Shown piece by piece: positions 3,765-63,896 of a stretch of DNA of 64,000 nucleotides; the stretch's first letter is position 1, and each line of letters begins with the position of its first letter. The stretch is from Escherichia phage EC.P2, in the sequence record PQ631072.1; one strand, given 5' to 3'. Position numbers and translations under genes: made by a program. The notes under the pieces were generated by a model that was not told where the DNA came from, did not search any database, and saw only the letters and a list, made by a program, of their open reading frames with translations.

Positions 3765-4130
3765 ATGGCTAAAAATATCAATGTTTCTGCTTATGCTACC
3801 CTGGCTAACACTGCTAAAATTGAACTATCCAGCATTGAAGCGGTACATATTAGCGCCCGTCGCTGGTTTCAAAAGTCTTATGGCAATACTTATTTCTCTT
3901 TGATGGTTGACGTTGAGATCGGCGGTAAACTGATTGAAGTCGTTAACGTTCCGTTTCAATATGGCTATGGGGATCATTTTGATACCGTTGCCCTAGAAGA
4001 GTTTAGCAAGGTTATCAACCTGGAAGGTAAAGACTTTTCAAATTATGCTTACCTTTCCCGTTTTTGCCGTGACAATGGGATCGCTGTATACAGTCATGCA
4101 AGCGATGTAAAACGTAAAAAAGATTTATAA
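3765..4130 (+). CDS. Hypothetical early protein (121 aa)
   Basis: ORF with RBS and promoter. Confidence 0.6.
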   Translation: MAKNINVSAYATLANTAKIELSSIEAVHISARRWFQKSYGNTYFSLMVDVEIGGKLIEVVNVPFQYGYGDHFDTVALEEFSKVINLEGKDFSNYAYLSRFCRDNGIAVYSHASDVKRKKDL

Positions 4131-4136
4131 AAAGCA

Positions 4137-4164
4137 TTGACAGCACGAATAAAAAGCATATAAT
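4137..4164 (+). promoter_or_regulatory. Consensus sigma70 promoter (TTGACA-N16-TATAAT) followed by hairpin 4178-4194
   Basis: Hexamers read directly. Confidence 0.7.
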
Positions 4165-4218
4165 ACTTATATCGAGAGCGGGAATAGTTCCCGCCTCACT
4201 GAAAAAGAGATTAACATC

Positions 4219-4458
4219 ATGGCTAAATCTAAAATGTACAACGGTCACAAAAATAAAACTCATTGGAATGTAAGCCTTTGGATTAATAACGATCCAGGTT
4301 TTTATAATATGGCAAAAGAATTTATAGCCGTGAACAACAATAAAGATAACGCCGCGCGTGAAATGATGGCACTACTTAACGAAATGGGCCAAAATACTAC
4401 GCCAGATGGCTATAAATTCAGTAAAACCAGTATCCGCGCCGCTATGGTAGGAATGTAA
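4219..4458 (+). CDS. Hypothetical early protein (79 aa)
   Basis: ORF; promoter, hairpin, RBS. Confidence 0.55.
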   Translation: MAKSKMYNGHKNKTHWNVSLWINNDPGFYNMAKEFIAVNNNKDNAAREMMALLNEMGQNTTPDGYKFSKTSIRAAMVGM

Positions 4459-4467
4459 TAAAAGCAG

Positions 4468-4495
4468 TTGACAACGTTTTTTAATCTGGTAAAGT
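4468..4495 (+). promoter_or_regulatory. sigma70-like promoter (TTGACA-N16-TAAAGT, TG-extended) followed by hairpin 4506-4527
   Basis: Same module recurs at about 5348, 8005, 8869, 9851. Confidence 0.6.
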
Positions 4496-4549
4496 TTATC
4501 ACATAGGGCGGGAAATGGTTTCCCGCCAAATGAAAGAAAGGTTATCATT

Positions 4550-4777
4550 ATGGCTATCGTTATTGTTCGCGTATCCGGTACGGTTGGAATCTCTCAGGTA
4601 GTAGCAGTTATCACAGAGAAGAAAGGGGATGATCTTCACTCCTCCTTGAATAGCTGGGCGGTCGCTAACTTTGGGCAATGGTCGAGCGTTGAGTACATCG
4701 AATCCTACCAGGTGCCAACGATTAGCCTAACTGATCTCAACGTTGATCGCTTGTTGTGCCTGGATCAATTAAACTAA
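4550..4777 (+). CDS. Hypothetical early protein (75 aa)
   Basis: ORF; promoter, hairpin, RBS. Confidence 0.55.
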   Translation: MAIVIVRVSGTVGISQVVAVITEKKGDDLHSSLNSWAVANFGQWSSVEYIESYQVPTISLTDLNVDRLLCLDQLN

Positions 4778-4864
4778 AAATAATATTGACAAGATAACTA
4801 AAATCAGTAAAATGTAATGCATAGGGCGGCAATAGTGCCGCTCCTAGTGAGAGAGATTATCAAA

Positions 4865-5080
4865 ATGGCTAATATCCGCACCTTGTTAAAAAATGCAAAG
4901 CAAGTTTTATTTTCAGATGACGAATATTTTAATAAAGATATTACAGGCGTGAAAAATCTTAAAGATGTGAAAGATGTTATCGGTATCCGTGGATCTTTAC
5001 GTAAAGGTGACATATACGGTAACAAGGTGCAATATAAATTGTCAAAAGATTATGATTTTACTTTGACAATTATTTCATAA
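4865..5080 (+). CDS. Hypothetical early protein (71 aa; start moved to internal ATG after hairpin)
   Basis: Track ORF 4817 starts inside hairpin 4824-4843; ATG 4865 has an RBS. Confidence 0.5.
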   Translation: MANIRTLLKNAKQVLFSDDEYFNKDITGVKNLKDVKDVIGIRGSLRKGDIYGNKVQYKLSKDYDFTLTIIS

Positions 5081-5170
5081 AACTACTTGCAAACCTGGTA
5101 AAATAAAGTAAACTATATTCATTAAGGCGGTGGAATAGCCCACCGCCTAACAAAGAGAAGAGGAAACATC

Positions 5171-5341
5171 ATGATCACTTTCGCCACCCGTGAAGCCGCT
5201 CGCAACGTTGCACGTAAAGTTAACGCCGCCAACCTGGGCGCTACGCTTAAAGCCCCGGTGAAAGATGAATCAGGAAAATGGATCTTTCCTGGTCTGCGTC
5301 ACGCTGATAAGCTGGGAACATTAACGTTAAAAAATAAATAA
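5171..5341 (+). CDS. Small hypothetical protein (56 aa)
   Basis: ORF after hairpin 5127-5147 and RBS aggaaac. Confidence 0.4.
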   Translation: MITFATREAARNVARKVNAANLGATLKAPVKDESGKWIFPGLRHADKLGTLTLKNK

Positions 5342-5427
5342 TATTCGCTTGACAGTAGCATCATTTATAAGTAAAGTAACAACAACGGCGGGAAATGGTT
5401 TCCCGCCATCAATAAAGAGATAAGATT

Positions 5428-5787
5428 ATGAAATCAGCAAAAGCAATTAAAACTTACATTTTATCGGCTATTTCTTTTGATGGTACTACAACCGAAAAAG
5501 AAAAAATCACCGAACTGATGCGCCGTTTTAATTCTGAATACTGGTATCCCGATAATCAAAAACGTTACAATTATAACGTGATCAAGGCAATAGCCTCATG
5601 GTTACAAGGTTTACCGTCAGAAATCAATATTGCTTTTGATTATAACGAGATCGATCACTTGTTAATTGAATGGAAGTACATAAAAGAAACAAGCAAAGAA
5701 ACAACCGTTACCCGTGAGCGGGAAAATTATTGGTTATATATTGCAAGCATGATCGTAACTTTGGCAAAATATCATAACGTAGCGTAA
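5428..5787 (+). CDS. Hypothetical early protein (119 aa)
   Basis: ORF; promoter 5348-5376, hairpin 5388-5407, RBS. Confidence 0.6.
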   Translation: MKSAKAIKTYILSAISFDGTTTEKEKITELMRRFNSEYWYPDNQKRYNYNVIKAIASWLQGLPSEINIAFDYNEIDHLLIEWKYIKETSKETTVTRERENYWLYIASMIVTLAKYHNVA

Positions 5788-5801
5788 TCGAGAGGAAAAA
5801 C

Positions 5802-5939
5802 ATGAACGCATCACAGCAGATCGAAAAATTCAACCGCAACAAAGCGCGTAAAGATTGGAACGAAGAGATCACCAAGAAAGGCGACAAGCGGAACAAAACA
5901 AAAAGAGATCGCAGCACTAAAAGACACTGGAACGGATAA
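5802..5939 (+). CDS. Small Lys/Arg-rich hypothetical protein (45 aa)
   Basis: Short ORF with RBS gagagg, followed by terminator. Confidence 0.35.
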   Translation: MNASQQIEKFNRNKARKDWNEEITKKGDKRNKTKRDRSTKRHWNG

Positions 5940-24744: not shown

Positions 24745-25557
24745 TTATTTAGTCAAATGATCTTCTATCATTTTTATGAAAGCAGGATTGCTAAAAGCAT
24801 CTGCGGCTTTTTCTCGATAAACAAAGACTCCTCTATCTTCGTAAAGAAGAGTTTCTTCGTAATTAATTCCTGGGTTAACAACAATCATTTTTGTACCCAT
24901 ATTAAGTGCAGGGAATAATTCCCAATTAAAATTGATAACTTGGTTTGAACATCCTACTACAACAACCAAATCTTGCATGGTCAAAGTATCAAACAAGTGA
25001 GCCATATCTGCATACAAAGGTGCAGCCTCACCAAAAAATACAACATTAGGCTTCACCCAGTTATAATCATCTATGTTTATGCTGTTGTAACCAATATCTA
25101 CCAGTGTTTTGTAATCTCCAGGATGCATACGGTAAACTACTTCAGGAAGATATCCGTGCACGTGAATAACCGAATCTCTGTCTACACCTGCTCGCTCTAG
25201 TAGATCATCAACGTTTGTTGTCAAGTTTATTACTTGGTTAGGATATTCCTTAAACCACTTTGCTATTTGAATATGTGCAGCATTAGGTTGTACATCTTTA
25301 AGCTCAACACGTCTTTTGTTATAAAATTCGTGTGTTTTGGCATACAAATCCATACCATTTTCGTCTACACCACCAACCACTGGAAGATCTGGAGATGTTC
25401 TCACACGATAACCTGCTTGGAAAGCTCCAATATCGCAGACCTCTTCTAAATCATATTCTTCCCATAAAGCACGACCACTATCTGTGTCTGTTCGGAATGT
25501 TCGAATCCCACTGTCTGCACTTAAACCTGCACCACTGACAAAAATTACTCTTCGCAT
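24745..25557 (-). CDS. Sir2-family (sirtuin-like) NAD+-dependent enzyme, no zinc-ribbon cysteines (270 aa)
   Basis: GAGLSADSGIRTFR, TTNVDDL, HG and VVFFGE motifs; no CxxC pairs. Confidence 0.7.
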   Translation of the reverse strand: MRRVIFVSGAGLSADSGIRTFRTDTDSGRALWEEYDLEEVCDIGAFQAGYRVRTSPDLPVVGGVDENGMDLYAKTHEFYNKRRVELKDVQPNAAHIQIAKWFKEYPNQVINLTTNVDDLLERAGVDRDSVIHVHGYLPEVVYRMHPGDYKTLVDIGYNSINIDDYNWVKPNVVFFGEAAPLYADMAHLFDTLTMQDLVVVVGCSNQVINFNWELFPALNMGTKMIVVNPGINYEETLLYEDRGVFVYREKAADAFSNPAFIKMIEDHLTK

Positions 25558-26888: not shown

Positions 26889-27878
26889 TCATTCCTCCAT
26901 ACACTTAAGAATATGTGCAATGACAGGTATAGTCCAACCATTACCTAACATCTTATATGCTTGTGTGTTACTACTCACTTTAAAGTAATCATCTGGAACA
27001 CCTTGTAAGCGGCAACACTCTTTAACCGTTAACTTTCTATAATGCACGCCTTCGCTCAATTTTTCAAAGGCATCCAGATATCTTCCAGGTGGAATGTAAG
27101 CTAATAGTACATCTTTCGGCACAGTCGTGAGGCAACGAGTTTTTTCACTGTCTTGAACTTCCAAGCAATGTACCAAACGATCAGTTTTAGATGTACTACG
27201 TTTGCCATTTTCATTAATTCTACGCCCATATATTGCTGCTGGATAAAAAGCCAGTTGTCTGCGACTCTTTTCAAAATACTGTTCTATATTACCACCTTTG
27301 GCATAATTTGCATCTATGCAATAAGCCTTATCTCTGTCTACGATACTATCATCTTCAATGATATCTTGCAACACTTCATTGGTAATATCCCAAGGTTTTA
27401 TTTCCCAATTGCACCAGTATAAACGTTGTCTATTCTGTGCAGTGAAATCTGCGGAGTTAATGAATACGGGATCAACACCTAAGTAACTTGTGATCACGTT
27501 TTCCCACTCCACCTTCATCTTAACGTTTTCAAGCATGAACTTAACATTAGGGTTAAACTTTTTAATATGTTCAAGAATTTCAACATATTCAAAGAACAGT
27601 TTAGATCGCGGATCTTGAAAGTTCAAACCCTTACCAGAAGAAGAGAAGCCTTGGCACGGGCTACCACCTAACAAAAGATCAATTTCTCCCCACGGGATAT
27701 CCCATTCTCTCCATTTTGTAACATCCCCTAATTGAATAATGTCTGGAAAATTGGCTTGGCTTTCAGCTATGGCAAATTTGTCCAATTCTGAGGCATAATA
27801 TTTATCTACTTCAATACCTGCACTTTTTAGTGCAAGCATTCCTCCTGACATACCATCAAAAAGACTTAAAACTTTCAT
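26889..27878 (-). CDS. DNA (cytosine-5)-methyltransferase
   Basis: Motif I FDGMSGG, motif IV GGSPCQGFS, motif VI ENV, C-terminal GNGWT. Confidence 0.85.
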   Translation of the reverse strand: MKVLSLFDGMSGGMLALKSAGIEVDKYYASELDKFAIAESQANFPDIIQLGDVTKWREWDIPWGEIDLLLGGSPCQGFSSSGKGLNFQDPRSKLFFEYVEILEHIKKFNPNVKFMLENVKMKVEWENVITSYLGVDPVFINSADFTAQNRQRLYWCNWEIKPWDITNEVLQDIIEDDSIVDRDKAYCIDANYAKGGNIEQYFEKSRRQLAFYPAAIYGRRINENGKRSTSKTDRLVHCLEVQDSEKTRCLTTVPKDVLLAYIPPGRYLDAFEKLSEGVHYRKLTVKECCRLQGVPDDYFKVSSNTQAYKMLGNGWTIPVIAHILKCMEE

Positions 27879-51487: not shown

Positions 51488-52372
51488 TTATTTTTGAATA
51501 GTTGACTTGATAAGGTCTTGCATAATACCACGGATTTCGTTAAAGCACAGAAGGACAGATGCTTCAAAAGATCCTTCTTCATCATTAAAGTATTTAGGGA
51601 ATTTAATACCACTCAACTTAAATTCTTTATCAACAATAAAGTTAACGAAGCCGTCATATTCCAGGCCAATGGCAACAACGTGCTTACCATCTTCCATAAG
51701 TTCTACTGCACGAGATTCATAAAGGGACTCTTTACTCCATACAACCACACCTTCCGAATCTTCAAGTTTAATATAATTACCCAGGGTCAGTCGTTCAGCT
51801 TCATGTTCTTCTAAGATGGTATCAAAACCTTTAATAATCGCTTCTTCGTGTACACTAAACGGCAGAACTGGGAAAGTACCCAACACCTCACGAAGAAATA
51901 CAGCAATATCTTCACTAATTTTCTTAGTACCATTAAGAACATAGGTAATACTGTTTTCAGTGTCTACAACAACATAGTTATAGAAATCATCTGCCTCTGT
52001 TTCTGGGAGCAAAGAAAACACAATATCAGCCTCAATTGCTTTTTTACTTTCTTTGTCCAAGAAAAACTCTTTGGTAGGATTTGCAGCAATAAACTCTTGT
52101 TCCATTTCCTGGAGCTTTTCATTAAGAATGCGTTTAACTTTCTTCTTGTTAACTTTCTTAACAGACTGCCCTACTTTAATAACCTCTAAACCAGAGAACA
52201 CTTTTACATAGGAACCATCATCTTCAAAACGAACAAGACCAATGGTATGTGCTTGTTGCCCCTGTGCCACAACAAAATCCAGCGGTTTGTCTGTTACTGT
52301 GTTCAGTGCTGAAATAGACAGACCATCACCAGAAATCAGGGTTACGCAAGATTTGAAATTTTTAGCAAACAT
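51488..52372 (-). CDS. Hypothetical protein (294 aa)
   Basis: Trimmed to ATG with GAGGAG RBS. Confidence 0.55.
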   Translation of the reverse strand: MFAKNFKSCVTLISGDGLSISALNTVTDKPLDFVVAQGQQAHTIGLVRFEDDGSYVKVFSGLEVIKVGQSVKKVNKKKVKRILNEKLQEMEQEFIAANPTKEFFLDKESKKAIEADIVFSLLPETEADDFYNYVVVDTENSITYVLNGTKKISEDIAVFLREVLGTFPVLPFSVHEEAIIKGFDTILEEHEAERLTLGNYIKLEDSEGVVVWSKESLYESRAVELMEDGKHVVAIGLEYDGFVNFIVDKEFKLSGIKFPKYFNDEEGSFEASVLLCFNEIRGIMQDLIKSTIQK

Positions 52373-52382
52373 AGTTTTCTCC

Positions 52383-52661
52383 TCAAATAACAACTACAAA
52401 ATATTTTACACCATCATATTCGACAATATGATCAGGATATTTAAATCCTTTATAAGATTTACCAAACAGACTAACAGCTTCATTAGCTTTGTTTTGCGGA
52501 TTACTCAACCACTGTTCTTCTGTGTAAAACTTAAATTCTGTTCTCTTACCTTCTTTTTCTAAACCAACAATTTCCTGTGTGATATCTTCAATACCTGCAT
52601 TCTTCAAGGATTTGATTACCTGACGCAAACCGTGTTTAAAGATATCTTCTGCTGTTAACAT
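52383..52661 (-). CDS. Hypothetical protein (92 aa)
   Basis: ORF with GGAGG RBS. Confidence 0.5.
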   Translation of the reverse strand: MLTAEDIFKHGLRQVIKSLKNAGIEDITQEIVGLEKEGKRTEFKFYTEEQWLSNPQNKANEAVSLFGKSYKGFKYPDHIVEYDGVKYFVVVI

Positions 52662-52697
52662 AATACCTCCAATAAGCCCCCGAAGGGGCTTTATTTC

Positions 52698-53420
52698 TTA
52701 AGCAATGATTGCTGCGATATTAGGTTTAACAAAGGTAGATGGTTTCATAATTTTACCTTTGTCATCAAAGAATACGTATACCTTTTGAACTTCGTTATAT
52801 ACAGCATGTACTCCAGTATAAGAACCTTCTGCACGATCTTTGCTTCGCATCTCGATAGCATCACACTCTTTTTCAAGAGCTTCAACAATATCCTTAGTTT
52901 CCCAAATAGCCAGGAGTTGCTTCTTGGTAGGATACTTGGACTCATTGCTATTCAACACTTCACGCATAACCTTCTTCTCGTTATAAACAGAACGCACCAA
53001 AGTATCTCGTGCCATACGTGTAAGTGTAAGAGACATTAGGGCAAATTGCAAGTCATTTTCTACCATTTTATCAAATTCAATGATAACATCGTAGATGTTT
53101 TCTGCCAGAACATCTCCTGTCGGCATTTCCAGAGCTTTATCAACACCTTCTTTACCAAAGAACATAAACGCCAGGTAGGATGCTACCACAAAAATATCTG
53201 CTGCTGCATCAAGTAATTCAACGTGATCATTTTCCTGTGCTGCTGCTTGGAACTCTTTTAGTTCTTCTCGTACAAAAGAAAGTTGAGCTTCAAACATCTC
53301 TTGAGTAAATTCTGGGGTTACGCCACCACGTGCCTTAGCATTCCAAGCAACAATTTGATCGGCAGCCTTGATAAAGAAGCTATTGTCCACTTTTACTTGT
53401 TTGAAAAAATTCTCGATCAT
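52698..53420 (-). CDS. MazG-like nucleotide pyrophosphohydrolase, putative
   Basis: EELKEF ... ELLDAAADIFVV resembles the MazG ExxE ... D metal-binding helices; weak. Confidence 0.3.
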   Translation of the reverse strand: MIENFFKQVKVDNSFFIKAADQIVAWNAKARGGVTPEFTQEMFEAQLSFVREELKEFQAAAQENDHVELLDAAADIFVVASYLAFMFFGKEGVDKALEMPTGDVLAENIYDVIIEFDKMVENDLQFALMSLTLTRMARDTLVRSVYNEKKVMREVLNSNESKYPTKKQLLAIWETKDIVEALEKECDAIEMRSKDRAEGSYTGVHAVYNEVQKVYVFFDDKGKIMKPSTFVKPNIAAIIA

Positions 53421-53618
53421 TGTTTCTCCTTATTTAAAATATTGTTCTAACAAAACACTAATGCGAACTACCGATTCGCCCATATACGCCCCAGCACAGA
53501 GGAAAACAATAAATCTACAAAAATTGCAGTACCATTTGTCCACTGGAAACGAGCCTAACATTATAATTGCAATAGCAATTAACATCATAAGAACTGTTAC
53601 TAATACCATACTTACCTC

Positions 53619-54734
53619 TTACTCTGCTGGCTCCCAAGTACCTGGAATCATCTTACGTAAACGGACACCTGTTGGTTTAGTAGGTATTCCACCATCGGAA
53701 AACTCTTCATACTCAATCTCAACAAATTTACCAATTAACATTTCAGCATTTTCTGCTTTACGATAGTTAATGGTTTCATCTGAATCCTTACGCATCAGGA
53801 ATTCGACTACTTTACCATTTTCCATCTCGCCTGTCAATACCCCGTCACCATTTTTATCACGTTTTGCACTTACCACCTTAACTTCAAGCGTCTGCCGTGG
53901 TTTACGTTTAATAACATCATAAGAACGTTTATCAAACTCGTAAACACCTTGTGCATTACGATAAACAACACCTTCAGCTTTCTCACGCAGAGCTTTTGCA
54001 TAGAACGCATCAAACTGCTCTTGGTTTTCAATGTACTCTGTATGCACTACACAAATAAGTTCATCTAAACCTTTATCTTCAACTACTTCTTTTAGAGCAG
54101 CCAAAACTTCAACCCTCTTCTCAAATGGTACAGATGGTACAGGAACATCATATACATAGTATTTAAGAAGCGGAGTGTTAGCATTATGCTTTTTCCACGC
54201 ACTATTAATTTGTTGAAGGCTAAGGACACCCAAACCAGCAAAAACTTCACCGTCAAGAGGATGACCAACTACTTCTTTAATGAAGGTTGGAATTTCTTTC
54301 CAGTGAGGTGGAAGTTTATATACTTCCCCAGCTTTAGATAAGCATTCACCTTGCATGTTAATCATTGAACGTAGACCATTCAATTTATATTGTGCATAAC
54401 CTGGGAACAAAACACGATCAGCATAATCTTTATAATCCTGACATTTCATGGGTGTGGAAGGAACATGGTTTTCAGCTTCCTCTTTTGTTTTATAATACCC
54501 ATTCTTAAGTTGCTTTGTCCATTTGGCAAGAGCTTCGATTTCAGCTTGTTCTTCTGCTGTTGTTTCATTTGAGCGACCAATATTTTTAGGTTCTGCTGTA
54601 TAAGATTTGCTAGTAATCTTTCCACCTAATTGACCATGAGCAACAGTTACAACACTACCTTCGGTATAGACTGACCACTGTTTAATTTTACCTGTAGAAG
54701 TTTTACCATATAGTGTAGGATTAGTTTGTTTCAT
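53619..54734 (-). CDS. ATP-dependent DNA ligase-like nucleotidyltransferase
   Basis: Motif I-like KLNGLR (N in place of usual D), motif III LDGEVF, motif IV EGVVYR, motif V IKRK, C-terminal OB-like GGIPTKPTGVRLR. Confidence 0.5.
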   Translation of the reverse strand: MKQTNPTLYGKTSTGKIKQWSVYTEGSVVTVAHGQLGGKITSKSYTAEPKNIGRSNETTAEEQAEIEALAKWTKQLKNGYYKTKEEAENHVPSTPMKCQDYKDYADRVLFPGYAQYKLNGLRSMINMQGECLSKAGEVYKLPPHWKEIPTFIKEVVGHPLDGEVFAGLGVLSLQQINSAWKKHNANTPLLKYYVYDVPVPSVPFEKRVEVLAALKEVVEDKGLDELICVVHTEYIENQEQFDAFYAKALREKAEGVVYRNAQGVYEFDKRSYDVIKRKPRQTLEVKVVSAKRDKNGDGVLTGEMENGKVVEFLMRKDSDETINYRKAENAEMLIGKFVEIEYEEFSDGGIPTKPTGVRLRKMIPGTWEPAE

Positions 54735-54924
54735 CTTTAACCTCCAGTTGCGAAAGAACCCATTTAGCCATTTCAATTTCACCGTGTAGTCTGCCTAGTT
54801 CATAGGCATCATCAATATTACCACCAGTGTAATCATCCACCATAAAGTAAGGATCTTCGCTACTGTTAGGTGCGTTTGCAATTCTCGTTAGTTCTTCGAT
54901 AAATGTCATAGTTACCCTTACCAA
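54721..54924 (-). CDS. Hypothetical protein (67 aa)
   Basis: ORF. Confidence 0.4.
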   Translation of the reverse strand: MVRVTMTFIEELTRIANAPNSSEDPYFMVDDYTGGNIDDAYELGRLHGEIEMAKWVLSQLEVKDETN

Positions 54925-55142
54925 TTATACACAAGAGTTTGAATCTCTTCCATCAAGTCTTCAAGATCTGTATCAACGTATTCAGAAGATGTTGCCATAA
55001 AGTATGTAATCATTGTGAACCCTTCCGAAGAAAGGGCATCAAGGATATCATTAAACATATCTTCCATTTCAGTATTCTCACCAAATGAGAATAACATTTG
55101 TTGATCTTCGCTTACACCTTTAACATAGATAGCTGTACTCAT
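54918..55142 (-). CDS. Hypothetical acidic protein (74 aa)
   Basis: ORF. Confidence 0.4.
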   Translation of the reverse strand: MSTAIYVKGVSEDQQMLFSFGENTEMEDMFNDILDALSSEGFTMITYFMATSSEYVDTDLEDLMEEIQTLVYNW

Positions 55143-55145
55143 ATA

Positions 55146-55466
55146 TTAATCCTTAAGACGTTCATTTAAATCTGCAATAACATCACCTAAATCTTCACAT
55201 TCCAGTGTTAACTCTGAAACTTGTCCACTCAAATAACAAACTTCTTCATTTAAATCTGAAATAATGTTTTCTAATGAATCTACTTGGTCATCATATGAAC
55301 GTTTTGTTTCTTCAAGTTCTTCCGTAAGATCATTAATCAAACGGAGCAAAGATAAGATATAGCCGTCTCCTGTCTCGTTCCTCCACTCACTTCCATAGCG
55401 ATAAATAATAATTTCACCATTATCTACTACTGTAAAATACTTACCTTCACCAGAATAAATTTCCAT
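55146..55466 (-). CDS. Hypothetical coiled-coil-like acidic protein (106 aa)
   Basis: ORF. Confidence 0.45.
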   Translation of the reverse strand: MEIYSGEGKYFTVVDNGEIIIYRYGSEWRNETGDGYILSLLRLINDLTEELEETKRSYDDQVDSLENIISDLNEEVCYLSGQVSELTLECEDLGDVIADLNERLKD

Positions 55467-55475
55467 ACACTCTCC

Positions 55476-55880
55476 TTATTGTAGCTTAAGTGAACTGCGA
55501 AGACGTTTCTCTTGCTGATCACGAATATGTTGTGGAACCTCATGAATTGAGTCGTTACCGTGCCTATTTTCAACAACTAAGGAGATAACTTGATAACCAA
55601 ACTCTTCAGCAAGAGTAAAATAAGGTTTAAGTTCTTTCTCTGTGGTTGAAGTGTTAGAGACAATAATCTTTTTAATATTAGATGCCATAGCATCACGAAC
55701 AATACTCTGACACCATGCGTGTGCTTTACCTACATTCTCTGGCTTCCAATCGTAAACACCACTATCTGTGTAATGATATTGATCTGCCTCACAGATAGGC
55801 CAATAACCTTCAGAAATAATTTCTGCTACTGTAGATTTACCTGCACCTGAAACACCACGTAAGATGATAAGTTGTTTCAT
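55476..55880 (-). CDS. P-loop kinase, polynucleotide-kinase-like
   Basis: Walker A LRGVSGAGKST; adjacent to RNA-ligase-like gene. Confidence 0.5.
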   Translation of the reverse strand: MKQLIILRGVSGAGKSTVAEIISEGYWPICEADQYHYTDSGVYDWKPENVGKAHAWCQSIVRDAMASNIKKIIVSNTSTTEKELKPYFTLAEEFGYQVISLVVENRHGNDSIHEVPQHIRDQQEKRLRSSLKLQ

Positions 55881-56813
55881 TTAGCCTCCAAAGAAGTTTT
55901 CTATTTCTTTACGTCGCTCTTGTGGATCTAAAGCAGCCCATTGAGTTTTAGTAAAGTTGTTTCGAAGCCATTCTAGCAAAGTATAATATTCTTCGTCAAC
56001 AATTTGTTTAGCATTTTTTGGGTTGTCCCAAATCATATCCCACTTCTTATTGCCACCACGCATAAGGAATTTCTTAGCAAGATAGTATGGTGACTTAATC
56101 TTTAACAGCAAGTTAAACGGATAGTTTGTTTCACGAACAACAAACCCTTCGTGCTTACAATGTTTAGACATTTCAACAACATCTGAAAATTTAATCATCG
56201 GATAAACTTCAGGACGTTTAAATTTTGTAATAGATGCAATCCCATCAAGCACACCTTCAGGTAGCATGAAACTTGTCCCATCAGGATTTTGAATCCTTGC
56301 TCCAATTAAGTATGCGCCTGGTTCTTCTTCAACAATATGTGGATCAGAAGGATCACAGATTTCAAAAAGGAAAGTTGCTTTTGCACTTTCTGTCCACTTA
56401 ATGAAATATTCTATGTCATCACACTCGGAAACAATATGATTCTTGGCAAGAATTGCAAAATCTGACTCTAGGCTCCCTGTTGTTGATACAATAAGTTGCC
56501 CTTTGTACACACCTACAGATGCCATAAAACCGTTTACTTTACGGACAGCATCTACAAGCTGGTCTGCTGGAAGATCTGTACCATTCTCAAAACGATTAAA
56601 GATTTTAGTAAAAGGCCAAATAACAACATTGTCTTCTGAGTCAACAACCAACCCACGACAATCTAGAAGGCGTTTGTCTACGTCCCACAAGTTGTCCCAG
56701 AATACATTGTTTTTGTATTTAAGTACAGCAAGACCAGCATACTCTCCAGATTTAACTTCTTTTTTATGCACTAAACCTTTTGCAATCAGGTCATCACAAT
56801 TGAACTTAGCCAC
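55881..56813 (-). CDS. RNA ligase, T4 Rnl1-like (putative)
   Basis: LLDCRGLVV ... KIFNRFENG and KVNGFM resemble T4 RnlA LECRGIMF ... FFNLNEN and KEDG as recalled. Confidence 0.5.
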   Translation of the reverse strand: MAKFNCDDLIAKGLVHKKEVKSGEYAGLAVLKYKNNVFWDNLWDVDKRLLDCRGLVVDSEDNVVIWPFTKIFNRFENGTDLPADQLVDAVRKVNGFMASVGVYKGQLIVSTTGSLESDFAILAKNHIVSECDDIEYFIKWTESAKATFLFEICDPSDPHIVEEEPGAYLIGARIQNPDGTSFMLPEGVLDGIASITKFKRPEVYPMIKFSDVVEMSKHCKHEGFVVRETNYPFNLLLKIKSPYYLAKKFLMRGGNKKWDMIWDNPKNAKQIVDEEYYTLLEWLRNNFTKTQWAALDPQERRKEIENFFGG

Positions 56814-56814
56814 C

Positions 56815-57366
56815 TTAATCTCCTTTGATTATCTTATGATGGTCTACAACAACAATATCACGCTTATCCATAATAGAGATGATTTCGTCAAAATGCAAGA
56901 TTTTTCCGTGTGCGTCCCAACCAACATCCAACATTTTCCCATACAAATGATCAGGGAATGATCCGTGAGAGTGCCCGTGTAGCATGATTGATCCATGCCC
57001 TTGTTTATTCCAGGAAGCCATAGGGTAATGGCTTAAGACGAAGAACAGTTTCTGATATTTCACTTCATCATAATACACCACCTCGCCATATTCTGCAAGC
57101 ACTTCTCGGTGTTTGCTGTAATCATGGTTCCCAACACAGTAAGTGATATCACCTTGGAGACGGGAAGCAATCTTACGGGTATCTTCTTCAGTCCCGAAAC
57201 AGAAGTCCCCAAGATGGTACATCTTTACTCCTGGTGTTGTGGCACATTTATTCCATGCTTCGATCAGTGCTTCTGTCATATGCTCCATATCTTCCCACGG
57301 GCGATATTCAGGAGCAAACTCTCGGATACGTTTGTGCATAAAATGCAAATCACTTGTAATAAACAT
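56815..57366 (-). CDS. Calcineurin-like metallophosphoesterase
   Basis: DLHF, GDF, GNHD, GHSH metal-binding motifs. Confidence 0.7.
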   Translation of the reverse strand: MFITSDLHFMHKRIREFAPEYRPWEDMEHMTEALIEAWNKCATTPGVKMYHLGDFCFGTEEDTRKIASRLQGDITYCVGNHDYSKHREVLAEYGEVVYYDEVKYQKLFFVLSHYPMASWNKQGHGSIMLHGHSHGSFPDHLYGKMLDVGWDAHGKILHFDEIISIMDKRDIVVVDHHKIIKGD

Positions 57367-57725
57367 TAGTATAATCCCTCGCTGAATAGTTCACTGTCGT
57401 GACCATTTCTTTCGTAGTTAATTTGTTTGGCGTTATCTGCAATGATATAAGCATCTTTGCGACTCCACCAGTTATAATACTGGTCAATAAACCCTTGATT
57501 ATCAGGTAAGCAAAACAGTTTATCAATCAATCCTGCATCTTTTAAAACATTAATTTGTGCAGATAGTACAGGATTCGCATGCCTAACACAAGGAATAATT
57601 AACTCTTCGCCATTGTTGAGAATATACTTATTCGCAGCGCAGACTATAACACGTTGAGCATAGTGATCCTCACCAATCCAAGTAAGAGGTTGGTAACAAA
57701 TATCATGTTGATTAGTAGTGCACAT
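57366..57725 (-). CDS. Hypothetical Cys-containing protein (119 aa)
   Basis: ORF, ATGA overlap with upstream gene. Confidence 0.45.
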   Translation of the reverse strand: MCTTNQHDICYQPLTWIGEDHYAQRVIVCAANKYILNNGEELIIPCVRHANPVLSAQINVLKDAGLIDKLFCLPDNQGFIDQYYNWWSRKDAYIIADNAKQINYERNGHDSELFSEGLY

Positions 57726-57871
57726 CAATTTTCTTCATACTCTTCGTCTGTATGTATATCGTAAAAGCAATCTTCAAAAGTTGCAAGTGCTTTTTCTACA
57801 TCGGGCCAATGGTTAGTGTGTTTGTATATATAAAACCCATCCCCTTCATCTACCCAAATAACATAAAGCAT
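57725..57871 (-). CDS. Small acidic hypothetical protein (48 aa)
   Basis: AAGGAGG RBS; below track cutoff. Confidence 0.35.
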   Translation of the reverse strand: MLYVIWVDEGDGFYIYKHTNHWPDVEKALATFEDCFYDIHTDEEYEEN

Positions 57872-57880
57872 AACACCTCC

Positions 57881-58222
57881 TTAATAGTTAACACGTTTAA
57901 TTTCAACACCATAGGATGAAATAAAATTTTCCTTAGCTAACATATATTTACCAGCAGCAGAAGGGTTTGATGTATGGACATAGATAGTTTTAAGAGCATC
58001 CCATTCACCCGCATACAACATACATTCTACGTCTAAGAATGCATGATATCCTTCCTGATCTTCTCCAAGATCATTATCGAAGTGTATCTCTGAGATATTA
58101 TTGAAATTATCTTCATCTGAAACAAAAGATAACCAATCCTCAAAAGATTTTAACCAAATGGCATCCTCATAACCATAATCTTTAGGATCTCTTAAATCGT
58201 CTAACCAAAGAATTTTAGCCAC
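57881..58222 (-). CDS. Hypothetical protein (113 aa, GTG start with GGGGG RBS)
   Basis: Track ORF trimmed; no ATG available. Confidence 0.4.
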   Translation of the reverse strand: MAKILWLDDLRDPKDYGYEDAIWLKSFEDWLSFVSDEDNFNNISEIHFDNDLGEDQEGYHAFLDVECMLYAGEWDALKTIYVHTSNPSAAGKYMLAKENFISSYGVEIKRVNY

Positions 58223-58224
58223 TA

Positions 58225-58416
58225 TCAACCCCCTTCTTGTTTCTCTTCTTTCCAAGTTTTACCATTATCTACCAACCTCTTAGAAACAGCAAATCTTTCT
58301 CCATTGATATAAAACAAATAAAGAATAAAGGATTTTCCTATAGTTACAGTATCTACTACTTCTACACGCTTCACACCTTGCATGTATTTGGCTTTACCTG
58401 AATAAATAAGGAACAT
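58225..58416 (-). CDS. Hypothetical protein (63 aa)
   Basis: ORF. Confidence 0.4.
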   Translation of the reverse strand: MFLIYSGKAKYMQGVKRVEVVDTVTIGKSFILYLFYINGERFAVSKRLVDNGKTWKEEKQEGG

Positions 58417-58694
58417 TACTTATTCCTTTTGTTGTTGATCACATCTAAAGCTGTGTAAGGTTTGTTTGTACCGCTGTATTCAAGAATAATTGGTACATAT
58501 TCATAGACCAACTCAAAAGTACCATACATAGAATCTGCAACTGAAATAAGCATTTCAGTGCCTTTGTCGTTCTTAATTAATGAAAATCTTGCCCCTGGTT
58601 TATTGAGCACTTCATATTTCTTACCTGCTGTCAGCAAACCTGAATACCATTCATTTTGCACAACAGACAAACACTTCAGATAAGTTTTTCTCAT
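58416..58694 (-). CDS. Hypothetical protein (92 aa)
   Basis: ORF. Confidence 0.45.
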   Translation of the reverse strand: MRKTYLKCLSVVQNEWYSGLLTAGKKYEVLNKPGARFSLIKNDKGTEMLISVADSMYGTFELVYEYVPIILEYSGTNKPYTALDVINNKRNK

Positions 58695-59026
58695 TTCTTT
58701 TTGCTCCTTCTTTTAGGCTTCTCGTATAAACCTAACACAGCCGACTCTTTTGCGCAAATAGGAACTGACTTCATTCCTCGTTTTTTAGCTTCTGGTAGAT
58801 TCAAAACCCACCAGCCAAACCAGTACAATTCATCTTCTGTGAAAGGATCTGCCATAGGATCTGCATCACGTGCTTCAAATTTAGCAAGAGCTTCTTCTAT
58901 CTTTTCTATTGGAGTATCAAAGACAAAAGCCTCTGTGTCAAATTTTTGTTTCTTAGGAGCGGCTTTTGCCGCCCCATCTTTAGATGCGCGCTTTGTTACG
59001 GATCGCTTCTTCGGTGTTTTCGCCAT
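58691..59026 (-). CDS. Hypothetical protein with Lys-rich N- and C-termini (111 aa)
   Basis: ORF with GGAGG RBS. Confidence 0.45.
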   Translation of the reverse strand: MAKTPKKRSVTKRASKDGAAKAAPKKQKFDTEAFVFDTPIEKIEEALAKFEARDADPMADPFTEDELYWFGWWVLNLPEAKKRGMKSVPICAKESAVLGLYEKPKRRSKKK

Positions 59027-59219
59027 CAACAACCTCCATGCGGTGTAAGAAATCTTGCTGGAATCGCCAATACTGTTGACCAGTCCTTACATCTTCGTAG
59101 ATCACAACAGGATCAAATACTTTAGATACACCCGCTGGTTTAGGAAAGCCAACTACACGATATAAACCGCCTTTGCTAATACAAGAATATGTTACACCAG
59201 TTAAAATTTCTTTTTTCAT
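58980..59219 (-). CDS. Hypothetical protein (79 aa)
   Basis: ORF; 3' end overlaps next gene by about 45 nt. Confidence 0.4.
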   Translation of the reverse strand: MKKEILTGVTYSCISKGGLYRVVGFPKPAGVSKVFDPVVIYEDVRTGQQYWRFQQDFLHRMEVVDGENTEEAIRNKARI

Positions 59220-59413
59220 TTCTTAATAAACTCCAATACAGGTACGTGATCAGCAGTTAAAGTTACACAATTGTAACTTACCTTTTCAACTTCAGAGAAT
59301 GCTTCAACCCATAGCAAGAAATTCTCTTTAGCTTCTTCATAATTCAATGTTGACTTAACAACATGGAACTCACCAAGGATTACTCTATAGATTGTTTGCA
59401 TAGTTTGATTCAT
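59216..59413 (-). CDS. Hypothetical protein (65 aa)
   Basis: ORF. Confidence 0.4.
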   Translation of the reverse strand: MNQTMQTIYRVILGEFHVVKSTLNYEEAKENFLLWVEAFSEVEKVSYNCVTLTADHVPVLEFIKK

Positions 59414-59479
59414 TTATTTTTCCTTTGTTTAAAATGTGTTAAACAATCGCAAATGCTTGTGACGCACTTTGTGATCCCA

Positions 59480-59848
59480 CTAATTAATGTCAGCACTATG
59501 ATTGTTGAGAGTATAGGATACTCCATCGCCCAAGTCAACATGAATCTCAACTCCTAACTGTCTTTCTAATGGTAAACGTTTTGAGAATTGATAATTACAA
59601 AGTTTACAGTCTAAGTCAAGCAACTCATGTTTGCTTAAACCTGCAACGATAACTTTGCTTCCCACTGTCCACTCAATACCTTCAAAGTTATCTCTTCTTT
59701 TCAAAATGTCAAGTAAGAAGATTATTTGTTGCCATTCCGTAGACAAGTCTTCTTCATAGAATGCAGAACAAAAAGTTTTATCATCGTAGAAAGCATACAT
59801 TATGCCTCCATCTATTGTTTCACTTCTAACGTAACGTGTGACCCTCAT
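59480..59848 (-). CDS. Hypothetical protein (122 aa), first gene of minus-strand block
   Basis: Trimmed to ATG with AGGAGGG RBS. Confidence 0.5.
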   Translation of the reverse strand: MRVTRYVRSETIDGGIMYAFYDDKTFCSAFYEEDLSTEWQQIIFLLDILKRRDNFEGIEWTVGSKVIVAGLSKHELLDLDCKLCNYQFSKRLPLERQLGVEIHVDLGDGVSYTLNNHSADIN

Positions 59849-60189
59849 TATTCCCTCCTGTATGGCTCTGTAACGAGCTAATAGCACCTAAGATATGCAA
59901 TCACCTTACCTCACAGTAAAACTCGTTACAATCGTTTTTAGGAGGTTCAGGTTGTACTTAAAAATAATCTAAAAAGGTGTTGACAAACGCAAAAAAGTAT
60001 GCTACCCTAACCCCCGAAAAACGCCGAGCGCAGCGAGGGGGTGTTATCTAATCTTGTGATACATGATCTAACAGACAACTGAGTAGTCTACATATAGCAC
60101 TATGTTATGTCTATAATACTAACATACATGCTCTATACTAACAATAGATTATTTATTAATTTTATTATTAATTAAATAATAAATATCTA

Positions 60190-60218
60190 TTGACTTTAGA
60201 TCTATCTGTATGTAGAGT
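60190..60218 (+). promoter_or_regulatory. sigma70-like promoter (ttgact-N17-tagagt) for prs-like gene
   Basis: Hexamers read directly; RBS aaggag follows. Confidence 0.55.
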
Positions 60219-60257
60219 AGAGAACATAAAGTCCTAACTCAACTAAGGAGATAAAGA

Positions 60258-61151
60258 ATGAAAGTTAGTATTCTGCATGGTGTTGACTGTTATGTTACTG
60301 ATGTAGACGTTAAAGTGTTTACATTCTCTGGTGGAGAACAACATGTTCAATTAGATACGAATCTATCAGGTTTCAATCATGCTACAGACAGAATCTTACT
60401 CACTTTAGAAGTAAGATCTGCTAAAGACTTGATGACTTTGGTTATGACTAAGAATGCATTGGACAATATGCTATATCATAAACCATATTGTGTTGATTTA
60501 CTCATGTTGTATGTGCCGTATGCACGACAAGACAGAGTGTGTGAGCCTGGGGAAGCATTCGGAGTTAAAGCATTTGCTTCTATAATTAATTCATTAAATT
60601 TCTCACGTGTTATCGTTGCTGATCCGCATAGTGATGTTACTCCAGCAGTGTTTGACAGACTCTGTGTAATACCTCAAGAAGAGATTGCTTACGAAACTTT
60701 AAAGTGGAAGTTACGTATGGAGAATTTTGCTCTTGTTAGCCCTGATGGTGGTGCTCTTAAGAAAATATTTAAATTATCTAAGAAAATGTCTTTAGATGTG
60801 TTCTGTGCAGAGAAGGTTAGAGATACCGCAACAGGTGCTATTGTTCGTACAGACATTTCTGTACAGGATTTCAATAAGCGTAACCTGATGATCGTAGATG
60901 ATATCTGTGATGGTGGTAGAACTTTTATCGAATTGGCTAAAGTGCTACGTGCTCGTAACGCAGGTAAGATTGAGCTATATGTTACGCACGGTATCTTTTC
61001 TAAAGGTCTTAAAGAGTTAAGTGAGCACTTTGACTGCATTCATTCTCTTAATGTGTGGGAAGATAACATCCAAGAAGATTCTGGTGTTCTTGTTAAGAAT
61101 CAGTCAGATTTGCAACAACAAATTGTATCTCCATACGTGTGGAATTTTTAA
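60258..61151 (+). CDS. prs: Ribose-phosphate pyrophosphokinase (Prs) family protein; candidate ADPR-PP synthetase of a NARP1-like module
   Basis: YARQDR, VSPDGGA and IVDDICDGGRT Prs-type motifs. Confidence 0.8.
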   Translation: MKVSILHGVDCYVTDVDVKVFTFSGGEQHVQLDTNLSGFNHATDRILLTLEVRSAKDLMTLVMTKNALDNMLYHKPYCVDLLMLYVPYARQDRVCEPGEAFGVKAFASIINSLNFSRVIVADPHSDVTPAVFDRLCVIPQEEIAYETLKWKLRMENFALVSPDGGALKKIFKLSKKMSLDVFCAEKVRDTATGAIVRTDISVQDFNKRNLMIVDDICDGGRTFIELAKVLRARNAGKIELYVTHGIFSKGLKELSEHFDCIHSLNVWEDNIQEDSGVLVKNQSDLQQQIVSPYVWNF

Positions 61152-63703: not shown

Positions 63704-63779
63704 GGTTCCATAGCTCACTGACGAGAGCGCACACCTCATAAGTGTCGAGGGCAGGGATTGTAACCCTGGGGAACCACCA
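63704..63779 (+). tRNA. tRNA with CAT anticodon (Met, or Ile if lysidinylated), CCA encoded
   Basis: Manual cloverleaf: acceptor ggttcc/ggaacc, D-stem gctc/gagc, anticodon loop cuCAUaa, T-stem caggg/ccctg. Confidence 0.7.
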
Positions 63780-63810
63780 TTTAAAAGGAGGTGCTATGCA
63801 TCTCCTATAT

Positions 63811-63896
63811 GCAAGTGTGGTGGAATTGGTGATACACATTGTGCTTAAAACGCAACGCTTAAATGATTGAGGGTTCGAATCCCTCCACTTGCACCA
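63811..63896 (+). tRNA. tRNA-Leu (TAA anticodon), type II with long variable arm, CCA encoded
   Basis: Acceptor gcaagtg/cacttgc, anticodon loop cuUAAaa, 13-nt variable arm, T-arm gaggg-ttcgaat-ccctc. Confidence 0.75.

Follow-up and report, generated by a model that had tools for sequence, protein, structure and literature searches.

The 64,000-nucleotide stretch of Escherichia phage EC.P2 that we analysed (PQ631072.1; hereafter the window) is part of the genome of a phi92-like coliphage (Justusliebigvirus, Stephanstirmvirinae), and it carries three consecutive minus-strand genes that probably work together as a split three-enzyme system for healing and sealing broken RNA by a route of the T4/Pnkp type. 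These genes encode a stand-alone binuclear metallophosphoesterase (MPE; 56815-57366, 183 amino acids (aa)), for which we propose a role in healing 2',3'-cyclic-phosphate and 3'-phosphate ends, a Rnl1-like ATP-dependent RNA ligase (55881-56813, 310 aa) as the proposed sealing enzyme, and a minimal P-loop kinase (55476-55880, 134 aa) as the proposed polynucleotide 5'-OH kinase. The RNA repaired by such a module would most likely be RNA cut by bacterial defence nucleases, tRNA for example. A module providing 3'-end healing, 5'-phosphorylation and sealing had been proposed from the DNA letters alone (the sequence-only reading) on the basis of five open reading frames (ORFs) at 55476-57871. All five lie on the minus strand at these coordinates and all the motifs named for them are present (SDLHF, GDF, GNHD and GHSH in the MPE; LLDCRGLVV, FNRFENG and KVNGFM in the ligase; LRGVSGAGKST in the kinase), and the proposal is now supported by the catalytic residues and the fold of the ligase, by the kinase profile, by the MPE motifs and by the linkage of the genes. 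The ORFs and the MPE motifs likewise bear out the view that healing is divided between separate proteins, with an MPE in place of a HAD phosphatase.

Gene linkage is the strongest evidence for the module. We scanned IMG/VR with an alignment of the ligase, which gave 80 viral loci with ligase identities of 38-99%, and searched the window's proteins against the ORFs of these loci, counting as partners those encoded within 6 kb of the ligase. The kinase is such a partner in 73 of the 80 loci and the MPE in 66, several of the loci that lack a partner being truncated, and partners share the strand of the ligase in every locus except one (L017). When the loci are grouped at 70% ligase identity, the kinase is present in 37 and the MPE in 38 of the 41 resulting clusters, and 34 clusters have both. 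At least six gene orders occur, the commonest being MPE-ligase-kinase and kinase-ligase-MPE.

The activities are also found joined in single proteins. In 11 of the 80 viral loci the ligase carries the kinase as an N-terminal fusion, and a scan of bacteria, with one genome per species, revealed two further arrangements. Leptolyngbyaceae cyanobacteria encode a single protein of about 707 aa that comprises an AAA_33 kinase, a Pnkp-type Metallophos domain and, at its C-terminus, a ligase of the phage family (positions 3783-5903 of locus L098 and 3768-5906 of locus L103, both from Leptolyngbya spp.). The MPE domain of this trifunctional protein, unlike the phage MPE, matches TIGR04075 (a partial match of 176 bits), and by its domain matches the protein is a Pnkp variant with a ligase of the phage family instead of Rnl4. 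No Hen1 was seen with the cyanobacterial fusions, and an RtcB gene lies 1.6 kb downstream of the fusion in L103. In a metagenome-assembled genome of the Cardiobacteriaceae (L084, 4446-5924), a kinase-ligase fusion is followed downstream by an MPE of the phage type. Non-orthologous MPEs therefore fill the same position beside the same ligase, as fits a function of this slot in 3'-end healing.

That the three are real genes and not chance ORFs follows from their annotation in near-identical phages, together with a family match for each protein. Dozens of Justusliebigvirus genomes with these coding sequences annotated share 96-99% identity with positions 55000-58500, and relatives at this level include Serratia phage KKP_3264 and the Escherichia phages PHB05, PD06 and PaulScherrer (BASEL Bas60). 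With the start codons annotated in these relatives, the intergenic gaps range from -1 to +9 nucleotides (nt), and a Shine-Dalgarno-like sequence precedes the start of every gene. A profile search of each protein, the check put forward along with the sequence-only reading, placed the ligase in PF09511 (53 bits), the MPE in phrog_547 (188 bits) and the kinase in both AAA_33 (39 bits) and phrog_2071 (197 bits).

The match of the ligase to PF09511 (RNA_lig_T4_1) spans residues 52-244 and, at 53.3 bits, exceeds the cutoff of 28.3. The protein also matches phrog_562 at 1.3e-68, and a search for its family recovered 2,621 homologues of about 300 aa. A phmmer search of the PDB with the single ligase sequence returned nothing relevant, and family profiles were needed; these match T4 Rnl1 at E values of 3e-9 to 1e-12, and an hhalign comparison of the ligase profile with full-length T4 RnlA gave a probability of 97.8% and an E value of 1.1e-12, over residues 46-246 only. 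In this alignment nucleotidyltransferase motifs I (KxxG), III (Glu), IV (EG) and V (KxK) are all present: K92-V-N-G95 is paired with K99 and G102 of T4, E151 with E159, E222-G223 with E227-G228, and K238 and K240 with K240 and K242. Across 23 sequences, with identities as low as 30%, the motif residues do not vary or hardly do, and K92 is the lysine predicted to be adenylylated. Residues aligned with ATP contacts are kept as well, R53 being invariant and K70 and F72 near-invariant; they are aligned with R54, K75 and F77 of T4 Rnl1, whose N-terminal sub-domain contacts ATP through Arg54, Lys75 and Phe76/77 (PMC6379707).

The fold points in the same direction. An AlphaFold (AF2) model of the ligase, with a predicted local distance difference test score (pLDDT) of 89.6, was compared with the PDB using Foldseek, and matched the fungal Trl1 ligase domain (Trl1-LIG, 6N0T) at 3.9e-13 and T4 Rnl1 (5TT6, 2C5U and 9DO4) at 4e-13 to 1e-12, both ranking ahead of Rnl3, Rnl2 and Rnl5; there was no Rnl4 structure among the best 50 matches. 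Judged by its motifs and predicted fold, the enzyme very probably works like Rnl1. Its homology to T4 RnlA stops after motif V, at residue 246 of the query and 248 of the T4 protein, and what follows is a helical module, short at about 65 aa compared with about 120 aa in T4, that does not align to the T4 C-domain. The resemblance to T4 RnlA claimed in the sequence-only reading thus stands for the adenylyltransferase core, but does not extend to the C-terminal domain, and the ligase is Rnl1-like without being a strict member of the Rnl1 family as that domain defines it. Three further residues outside the canonical nucleotidyltransferase motifs, H159, K248 and R252, are invariant throughout the family, cyanobacterial fusions included.

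The kinase was assigned to AAA_33 at 1.3e-9 and to phrog_2071, a family labelled 'ATPase', at 8e-58, with a weaker match to phrog_505, 'polynucleotide kinase', at 8e-9. Its P-loop, G9-V-S-G-A-G-K15-S-T17 (GxxxxGK[ST]), and its D33 are invariant in 21 homologues, and D33 is aligned with the catalytic Asp of T4 Pnk (D35, the general base; D38 in the Cth enzyme). Although the single sequence found only weak matches in the PDB, a profile built from 21 homologues from related viral loci discriminated among kinase families. It best matched the Pnkp1 kinase (4XRP) of the Capnocytophaga Pnkp1-Rnl-Hen1 repair complex (8.6e-9), with T4 Pnk, aligned along the whole protein (6e-8), the seryl-tRNA(Sec) kinase PSTK (3e-7), a stand-alone RNA kinase from Mucorales (9D8A; 5.7e-7), CthPnk (2e-6) and mammalian PNKP (6.5e-6) also matching, while nicotinamide riboside kinase scored 2.6e-4 and other small-molecule kinases at least 1e-4. 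Nucleoside kinases were thus three to four orders of magnitude worse than RNA/DNA 5'-kinases, the exception among nucleotide kinases being adenylate kinase 9, with a short match to the P-loop only (1.4e-7). From its profile the protein is most likely a polynucleotide 5'-OH kinase, and phosphorylation of 5'-OH RNA gains indirect support from the kinase-RNA ligase fusions of 11 viral loci and of bacterial genomes.

The MPE matches phrog_547 at 2.8e-55. All motifs of a dinuclear metal site are present (D6xH8, G53-D54, G79-N80-H81-D82, H113 and G131-H132xH134), and none of them varies among 18 homologues that are 29-49% identical. The nearest relative of solved structure is Aquifex aq_1665 (1XM7, of uncharacterised function), which the MPE profile matches at 1.9e-23; neither the CthPnkp phosphatase nor lambda phosphatase is among the PDB matches of this profile at E<=1, and the protein has no match to TIGR04075 of NCBIfam. 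The 'bacterial Pnkp logic' that the sequence-only reading had seen in this arrangement is therefore apt in functional terms but does not apply to the enzyme's kinship, which lies outside the Pnkp/lambda-phosphatase clade. Genomic context, together with the precedent of other MPEs, leads us to propose that the protein heals 2',3'-cyclic phosphate ends; CthPnkp and lambda phosphatase, both MPEs, are 2',3'-cyclic phosphodiesterases (PMC2190708).

Two small ORFs and a gene for a cREC domain protein lie immediately upstream of the MPE gene. The first small ORF, orf120 (57366-57725/57728, minus strand, 119/120 aa), belongs to PF26092 / phrog_839 and is found within 6 kb of the ligase in 3 of the 80 loci. 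The second, orf48 (57725-57871, minus strand, 48 aa), matches no Pfam or PHROG family and is conserved in the closest relatives only, in a single one of the 80 loci. Both are in the operon, but nothing ties either of them to the repair pathway. Nor do they lead the operon, as the sequence-only reading had it: the tightly packed minus-strand block reaches further upstream, to about 59887, with several small ORFs on the way, and directly upstream of the two, 9 nt from orf48, is the cREC gene that this reading overlooked (57881-58222, minus strand, about 113 aa). Its product matches PF20274 at 53.9 bits, against a cutoff of 27, and its receiver-type acidic motifs 'WLDDLRDP' and 'FDNDLGE' are kept in five diverged homologues. 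NCBIfam offered no usable match for the ligase, the MPE, the cREC protein or the small ORFs. cREC is a predicted cyclic-phosphate-processing receiver-like domain (PMC7824862); the protein is a probable accessory of the module, predicted to open cyclic phosphates.

A possible distal accessory is a SIR2-family protein (24745-25557, minus strand, 270 aa; PF02146 at 1.5e-22), which is the only SIR2 homologue in the window and is encoded about 30 kb from the repair genes, at the other end of the minus-strand block. Its orthologue (55% identity) in an rV5-like locus (L005) immediately follows the kinase, and the gene order there is MPE, two ORFs of unknown function, ligase, cREC, kinase, SIR2, DNA ligase, further ORFs and MazG. 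By eye, the window sirtuin is devoid of zinc-ribbon cysteines. A neighbourhood of this kind in phage V5 and Proteus phage Mydo, which also lists a MazG-like pyrophosphatase, has been read as RNA repair that uses nicotinamide adenine dinucleotide (NAD+), with the sirtuin proposed as a KptA-like remover of 2'-phosphates and cREC as a cyclic-phosphate esterase (Iyer et al. 2022, PMC9503650). Since no more than 11 of the 80 loci have cREC and SIR2 together with the ligase, we regard them as lineage-specific additions that lie outside the core.

Taken together, the three core enzymes would act in sequence on an RNA break. The MPE would hydrolyse the cyclic phosphate and then the resulting monoester to leave a 3'-OH, with the upstream cREC protein possibly aiding the opening of the cyclic phosphate. 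The 134-aa P-loop kinase would move a phosphate from NTP onto the 5'-OH, with D33 as the general base. The ligase, adenylylated at K92, would then transfer AMP to the 5'-phosphate and join this end to the 3'-OH. The substrates and the chemistry of each step, like the role in counter-defence and the host nuclease to be countered, are what we infer; the sequence itself shows the genes and their close packing, the family of each protein, the conserved catalytic residues, the ligase fold, and the evolutionary linkage and fusion of the three activities.

A number of observations weigh against this reading. The C-terminal domain that confers tRNA specificity on T4 Rnl1 is absent from the ligase or replaced, and the tRNA anticodon loop therefore cannot be assumed to be its RNA target. 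Lys119 of T4 Rnl1, which mutational work has found to be essential in T4, is aligned with an invariant threonine (T112, in 'STTG'). In T4 Pnk, Arg38 and Arg126 bind the phosphate backbone of the acceptor; the position of Arg38 is occupied in the kinase by the variable His36, with no evident counterpart, and R106 ('ENRHG') and the invariant R8 are present but of uncertain equivalence to the T4 arginines. By its profile matches the MPE is a member of an uncharacterised, aq_1665-like clade unrelated in sequence to the Pnkp phosphatase. The association of cREC and a sirtuin with the module in one lineage hints at a more complex end chemistry. In our literature searches on phi92-like, rV5-like and other phages, no experiments on the three proteins or on close homologues came to light. 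Finally, published phenotype data show that phages of the genera Justusliebigvirus and Vequintavirus are sensitive to the HEPN tRNase Ec2ApeA, so that the module does not give general protection.

The end chemistry in particular could follow the course known from yeast, in which the MPE, the cREC protein or both would only open the cyclic phosphate to give 3'-OH,2'-PO4 ends, the ligase would require the 2'-PO4 as Trl1 does, the phage sirtuin or host KptA would use NAD+ to take off the 2'-PO4 left at the junction, and adjacent genes like those for Prs and nicotinamide phosphoribosyltransferase would replenish the NAD+. We consider this unlikely, and give similarly low odds to the ligase being from an uncharacterised clade, with an Rnl1-like core and a C-terminal module of its own, that seals 3'-OH,2'-PO4 ends. 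The idea draws on the standing of fungal Trl1-LIG, equal to that of T4 Rnl1 in the Foldseek ranking, and on the three invariant residues outside the canonical motifs. H159 lies at +8 from the motif III Glu, and K248 and R252 lie at +8 and +12 from the second Lys of motif V, all within one residue of the triad for 2'-PO4 in Trl1, which has a His at +9 after the motif III Glu and an RxxR at +9/+12 after the second motif V Lys (PMC6379707, PMC11404444). The three are absent from T4 Rnl1, which has no His at the position of H159. The offsets are nevertheless off by one, a comparable element, 'SPY', stands at the position of the His in Rnl3 ligases, which do not need a 2'-PO4, and the ligase profile has no sequence-level match to Trl1-LIG even at E<=10. 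As for the company of the ligase, cREC and a sirtuin are linked to it in rV5-like phages, where Iyer et al. propose the sirtuin as an analogue of KptA, and the window encodes both proteins; yet these two are confined to the 11 loci mentioned, whereas MPE and kinase are near-universal, and the sirtuin of the window is 30 kb distant. The cyanobacterial ligase, moreover, is fused to a phosphatase of the Pnkp type, which in CthPnkp gives 2',3'-OH ends. In favour of the route, one substitution in the active site is reported to leave the MPE of Pnkp with cyclic phosphodiesterase activity only, in a form that can be used with the Trl1 ligase.

The fusions to RNA ligase make it improbable that the proteins heal DNA or have unrelated functions. 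T4 Pnk and mammalian PNKP act on DNA too, and the repair genes share their block with genes for an ATP-dependent DNA ligase (53619-54734, minus strand), recombination exonucleases and nucleotide metabolism, so one could imagine the kinase and the MPE healing 5'-OH and 3'-phosphate DNA ends for that ligase and the recombination genes, in a block serving replication and recombination. A DNA ligase is encoded within 6 kb in 37 of the 80 loci, but this is less than half and its position varies, whereas the kinase and the MPE are found with the RNA ligase in some 90% of all clusters. The Rnl1-like enzyme is the conserved core partner, and it is to this RNA ligase, not to a DNA ligase, that the kinase is fused; we hold healing of DNA ends to be very improbable. 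We are just as sceptical of the notion that the three proteins form no pathway, the MPE for example degrading cyclic-nucleotide immune signals or acting as a protein phosphatase, the kinase on nucleotides, and the ligase in tail-fibre attachment, non-catalytically, like T4 gp63. MPEs are catalytically promiscuous, this one stays under the gathering threshold of Pfam Metallophos_2 (21.5 bits, cutoff 27), and the PHROG labels read 'RNA ligase and tail fiber protein attachment catalyst' for the ligase family and 'ATPase' for the kinase. Separate roles sit poorly, however, with a linkage that survives shuffled gene orders and domain fusions in phages, Cardiobacteriaceae and cyanobacteria, with the invariance of every catalytic residue of the ligase, and with a kinase profile that favours polynucleotide kinases.

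The repair genes are located toward the upstream end of a long minus-strand transcription block that GC skew places between about 24 kb and 60 kb. The kinase is followed downstream by three small ORFs, the DNA ligase and then a MazG-like nucleotide pyrophosphohydrolase (52698-53420, minus strand; PF01503 at 3.2e-7), which is part of the extended conserved neighbourhood and lies downstream of the ligase in 12 of the 80 loci. The slot directly after the kinase, which in rV5-like phages is taken by the sirtuin, holds a 106-aa coiled-coil protein (55146-55466, minus strand; phrog_18076, 'hol-like chemotaxis') and two small ORFs. Some Justusliebigvirus genomes (PaulScherrer, 2009-2638 of locus L001; locus L004) have, between the genes for DNA ligase and the MazG-like protein, an extra gene of 209 aa without a Pfam match, which is absent from the window; L004 also shows an insertion of about 625 bp. 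Our scan of 52000-60400 did not delimit the transcription unit, since it gave 30 promoter-like sites, where 28.3 are expected in shuffled sequence, and no terminator on the minus strand inside the block. Directly 3' of the MazG-like gene, at 52666-52691, the palindromic sequence AAGCCCCCGAAGGGGCTT is a GC-rich hairpin, flanked on both strands by T-rich stretches; it is a candidate terminator for both directions, and the transcription unit of the repair genes may end there. The presence of genes for DNA ligase, recombination and nucleotide metabolism in the block suggests early or middle expression of the repair genes.

Divergent from the repair block, on the plus strand at 60258-61151, is a gene for a homologue of Prs-like ribose-phosphate pyrophosphokinases (PF00156/PF14572/PF13793), and the gene that follows it, from about 61220, is annotated as a nicotinamide phosphoribosyltransferase in relatives. 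This pair may be NARP1, the pathway by which phages reconstitute NAD+ (Adps + Namat; Osterman et al.), which it resembles. The MPE was considered as the 'phage phosphatase' in the extended form of NARP1 and rejected, that enzyme being a Macro-domain protein. A Prs-like gene also adjoins a kinase-ligase fusion and an Rnl2-type ligase in an unrelated viral locus (L047, 9612-10454). Elsewhere in the window, a 329-aa ORF on the minus strand (26889-27878) shows, by eye, motifs of the DNA cytosine-C5 methyltransferase type (GGSPCQGFS, ENV), and genes for tRNA-Met (CAT) and tRNA-Leu (TAA) at the window end (63704-63896, plus strand) are probably the start of a phage tRNA cluster.

Set beside the systems already described, the module has the same set of activities as T4 Pnkp (PseT) and RnlA, which likewise provide a lytic coliphage with a 5'-kinase, a 3'-end phosphoesterase and an ATP-dependent ligase; the ligase core and the kinase domain are homologous to their T4 counterparts and keep the same catalytic residues, in the kinase the P-loop and the catalytic Asp. 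In T4, however, healing is the work of one bifunctional enzyme, with a HAD/DxDxT acylphosphatase in the place of the binuclear MPE, and the ligase of the window differs from T4 Rnl1 in its C-terminal domain and in the replacement of K119 by Thr. With C. thermocellum Pnkp-Hen1 and Capnocytophaga Pnkp1-Rnl-Hen1 the module shares the combination of kinase, metallophosphoesterase and ligase, the MPE being proposed here to act on 2',3'-cyclic phosphate. Pnkp1 is the best solved match of the kinase profile, CthPnk scores as well, and cyanobacteria have fused a kinase-phosphatase of the Pnkp type to the very ligase family of the window. The differences from bacterial Pnkp are that the phage MPE is from another clade, that the ligase is Rnl1-like and not Rnl4, and that the three activities reside on separate polypeptides, with no Hen1 methyltransferase seen.

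The fungal and plant Trl1 enzymes (LIG-KIN-CPD), which act with Tpt1, offer in their ligase domain the top fold match of the window ligase, and in the split Trl1 of Mucorales ligase and kinase are likewise separate, the stand-alone RNA kinase being among the matches of the kinase profile. Trl1 uses a 2H cyclic phosphodiesterase, however, and needs a 2'-PO4 end and the NAD+-dependent Tpt1, whereas the core partner in the window is an MPE, and the His-Arg-Arg triad of Trl1 is mirrored only approximately by H159, K248 and R252. The sirtuin-centred neighbourhood of rV5 and Mydo (type 2 in section 3.7.3 of Iyer, Burroughs, Anantharaman and Aravind 2022, PMC9503650) is the published arrangement with the same components, namely a T4-like tRNA ligase, cREC, a nucleotide kinase, a MazG-like protein and a calcineurin-like phosphoesterase. 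All five repair genes of this type lie on one strand within 52698-58222 of the window, and the proteins of the rV5-like locus L005 are orthologous to those of the window. The window departs from that neighbourhood in the remote sirtuin and in having cREC upstream of the MPE, where rV5-like phages have it between ligase and kinase. The MPE, 'occasional' in the published description, which is itself a prediction, is constant across the wider family examined here.

The module is already known as a prediction and is not a discovery of ours, given the annotation of near-identical phages and the RNA-repair interpretation published for the rV5/Mydo neighbourhood. The genes of the BASEL phage PaulScherrer are annotated as RNA ligase, phosphoesterase and polynucleotide kinase, and other near-identical GenBank records carry the label 'RNA ligase/RNA repair'. 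Characterisation of the three proteins would define the end chemistry of this MPE clade and what replaces the tRNA-recognition domain of T4 Rnl1, and would shed light on what cREC and phage sirtuins are proposed to do. Should the ligase after all depend on a 2'-PO4, this would be the first RNA ligation pathway of the yeast type in bacteria or phages, and it would give bacterial Tpt1/KptA a natural substrate. As three small, separable proteins, the enzymes could possibly also serve as compact tools for manipulating RNA ends. Many bacterial immune systems and toxins cut tRNA to stop phages, which makes RNA repair by a phage a form of counter-defence, and if our reading of a split T4/Pnkp-type route is right, the module would be a widespread alternative to the Pnkp/Rnl1 pair of T4, with a ligase family that spans 41 clusters at 70% identity in diverged phage lineages and reaches into cyanobacteria and Cardiobacteriaceae.

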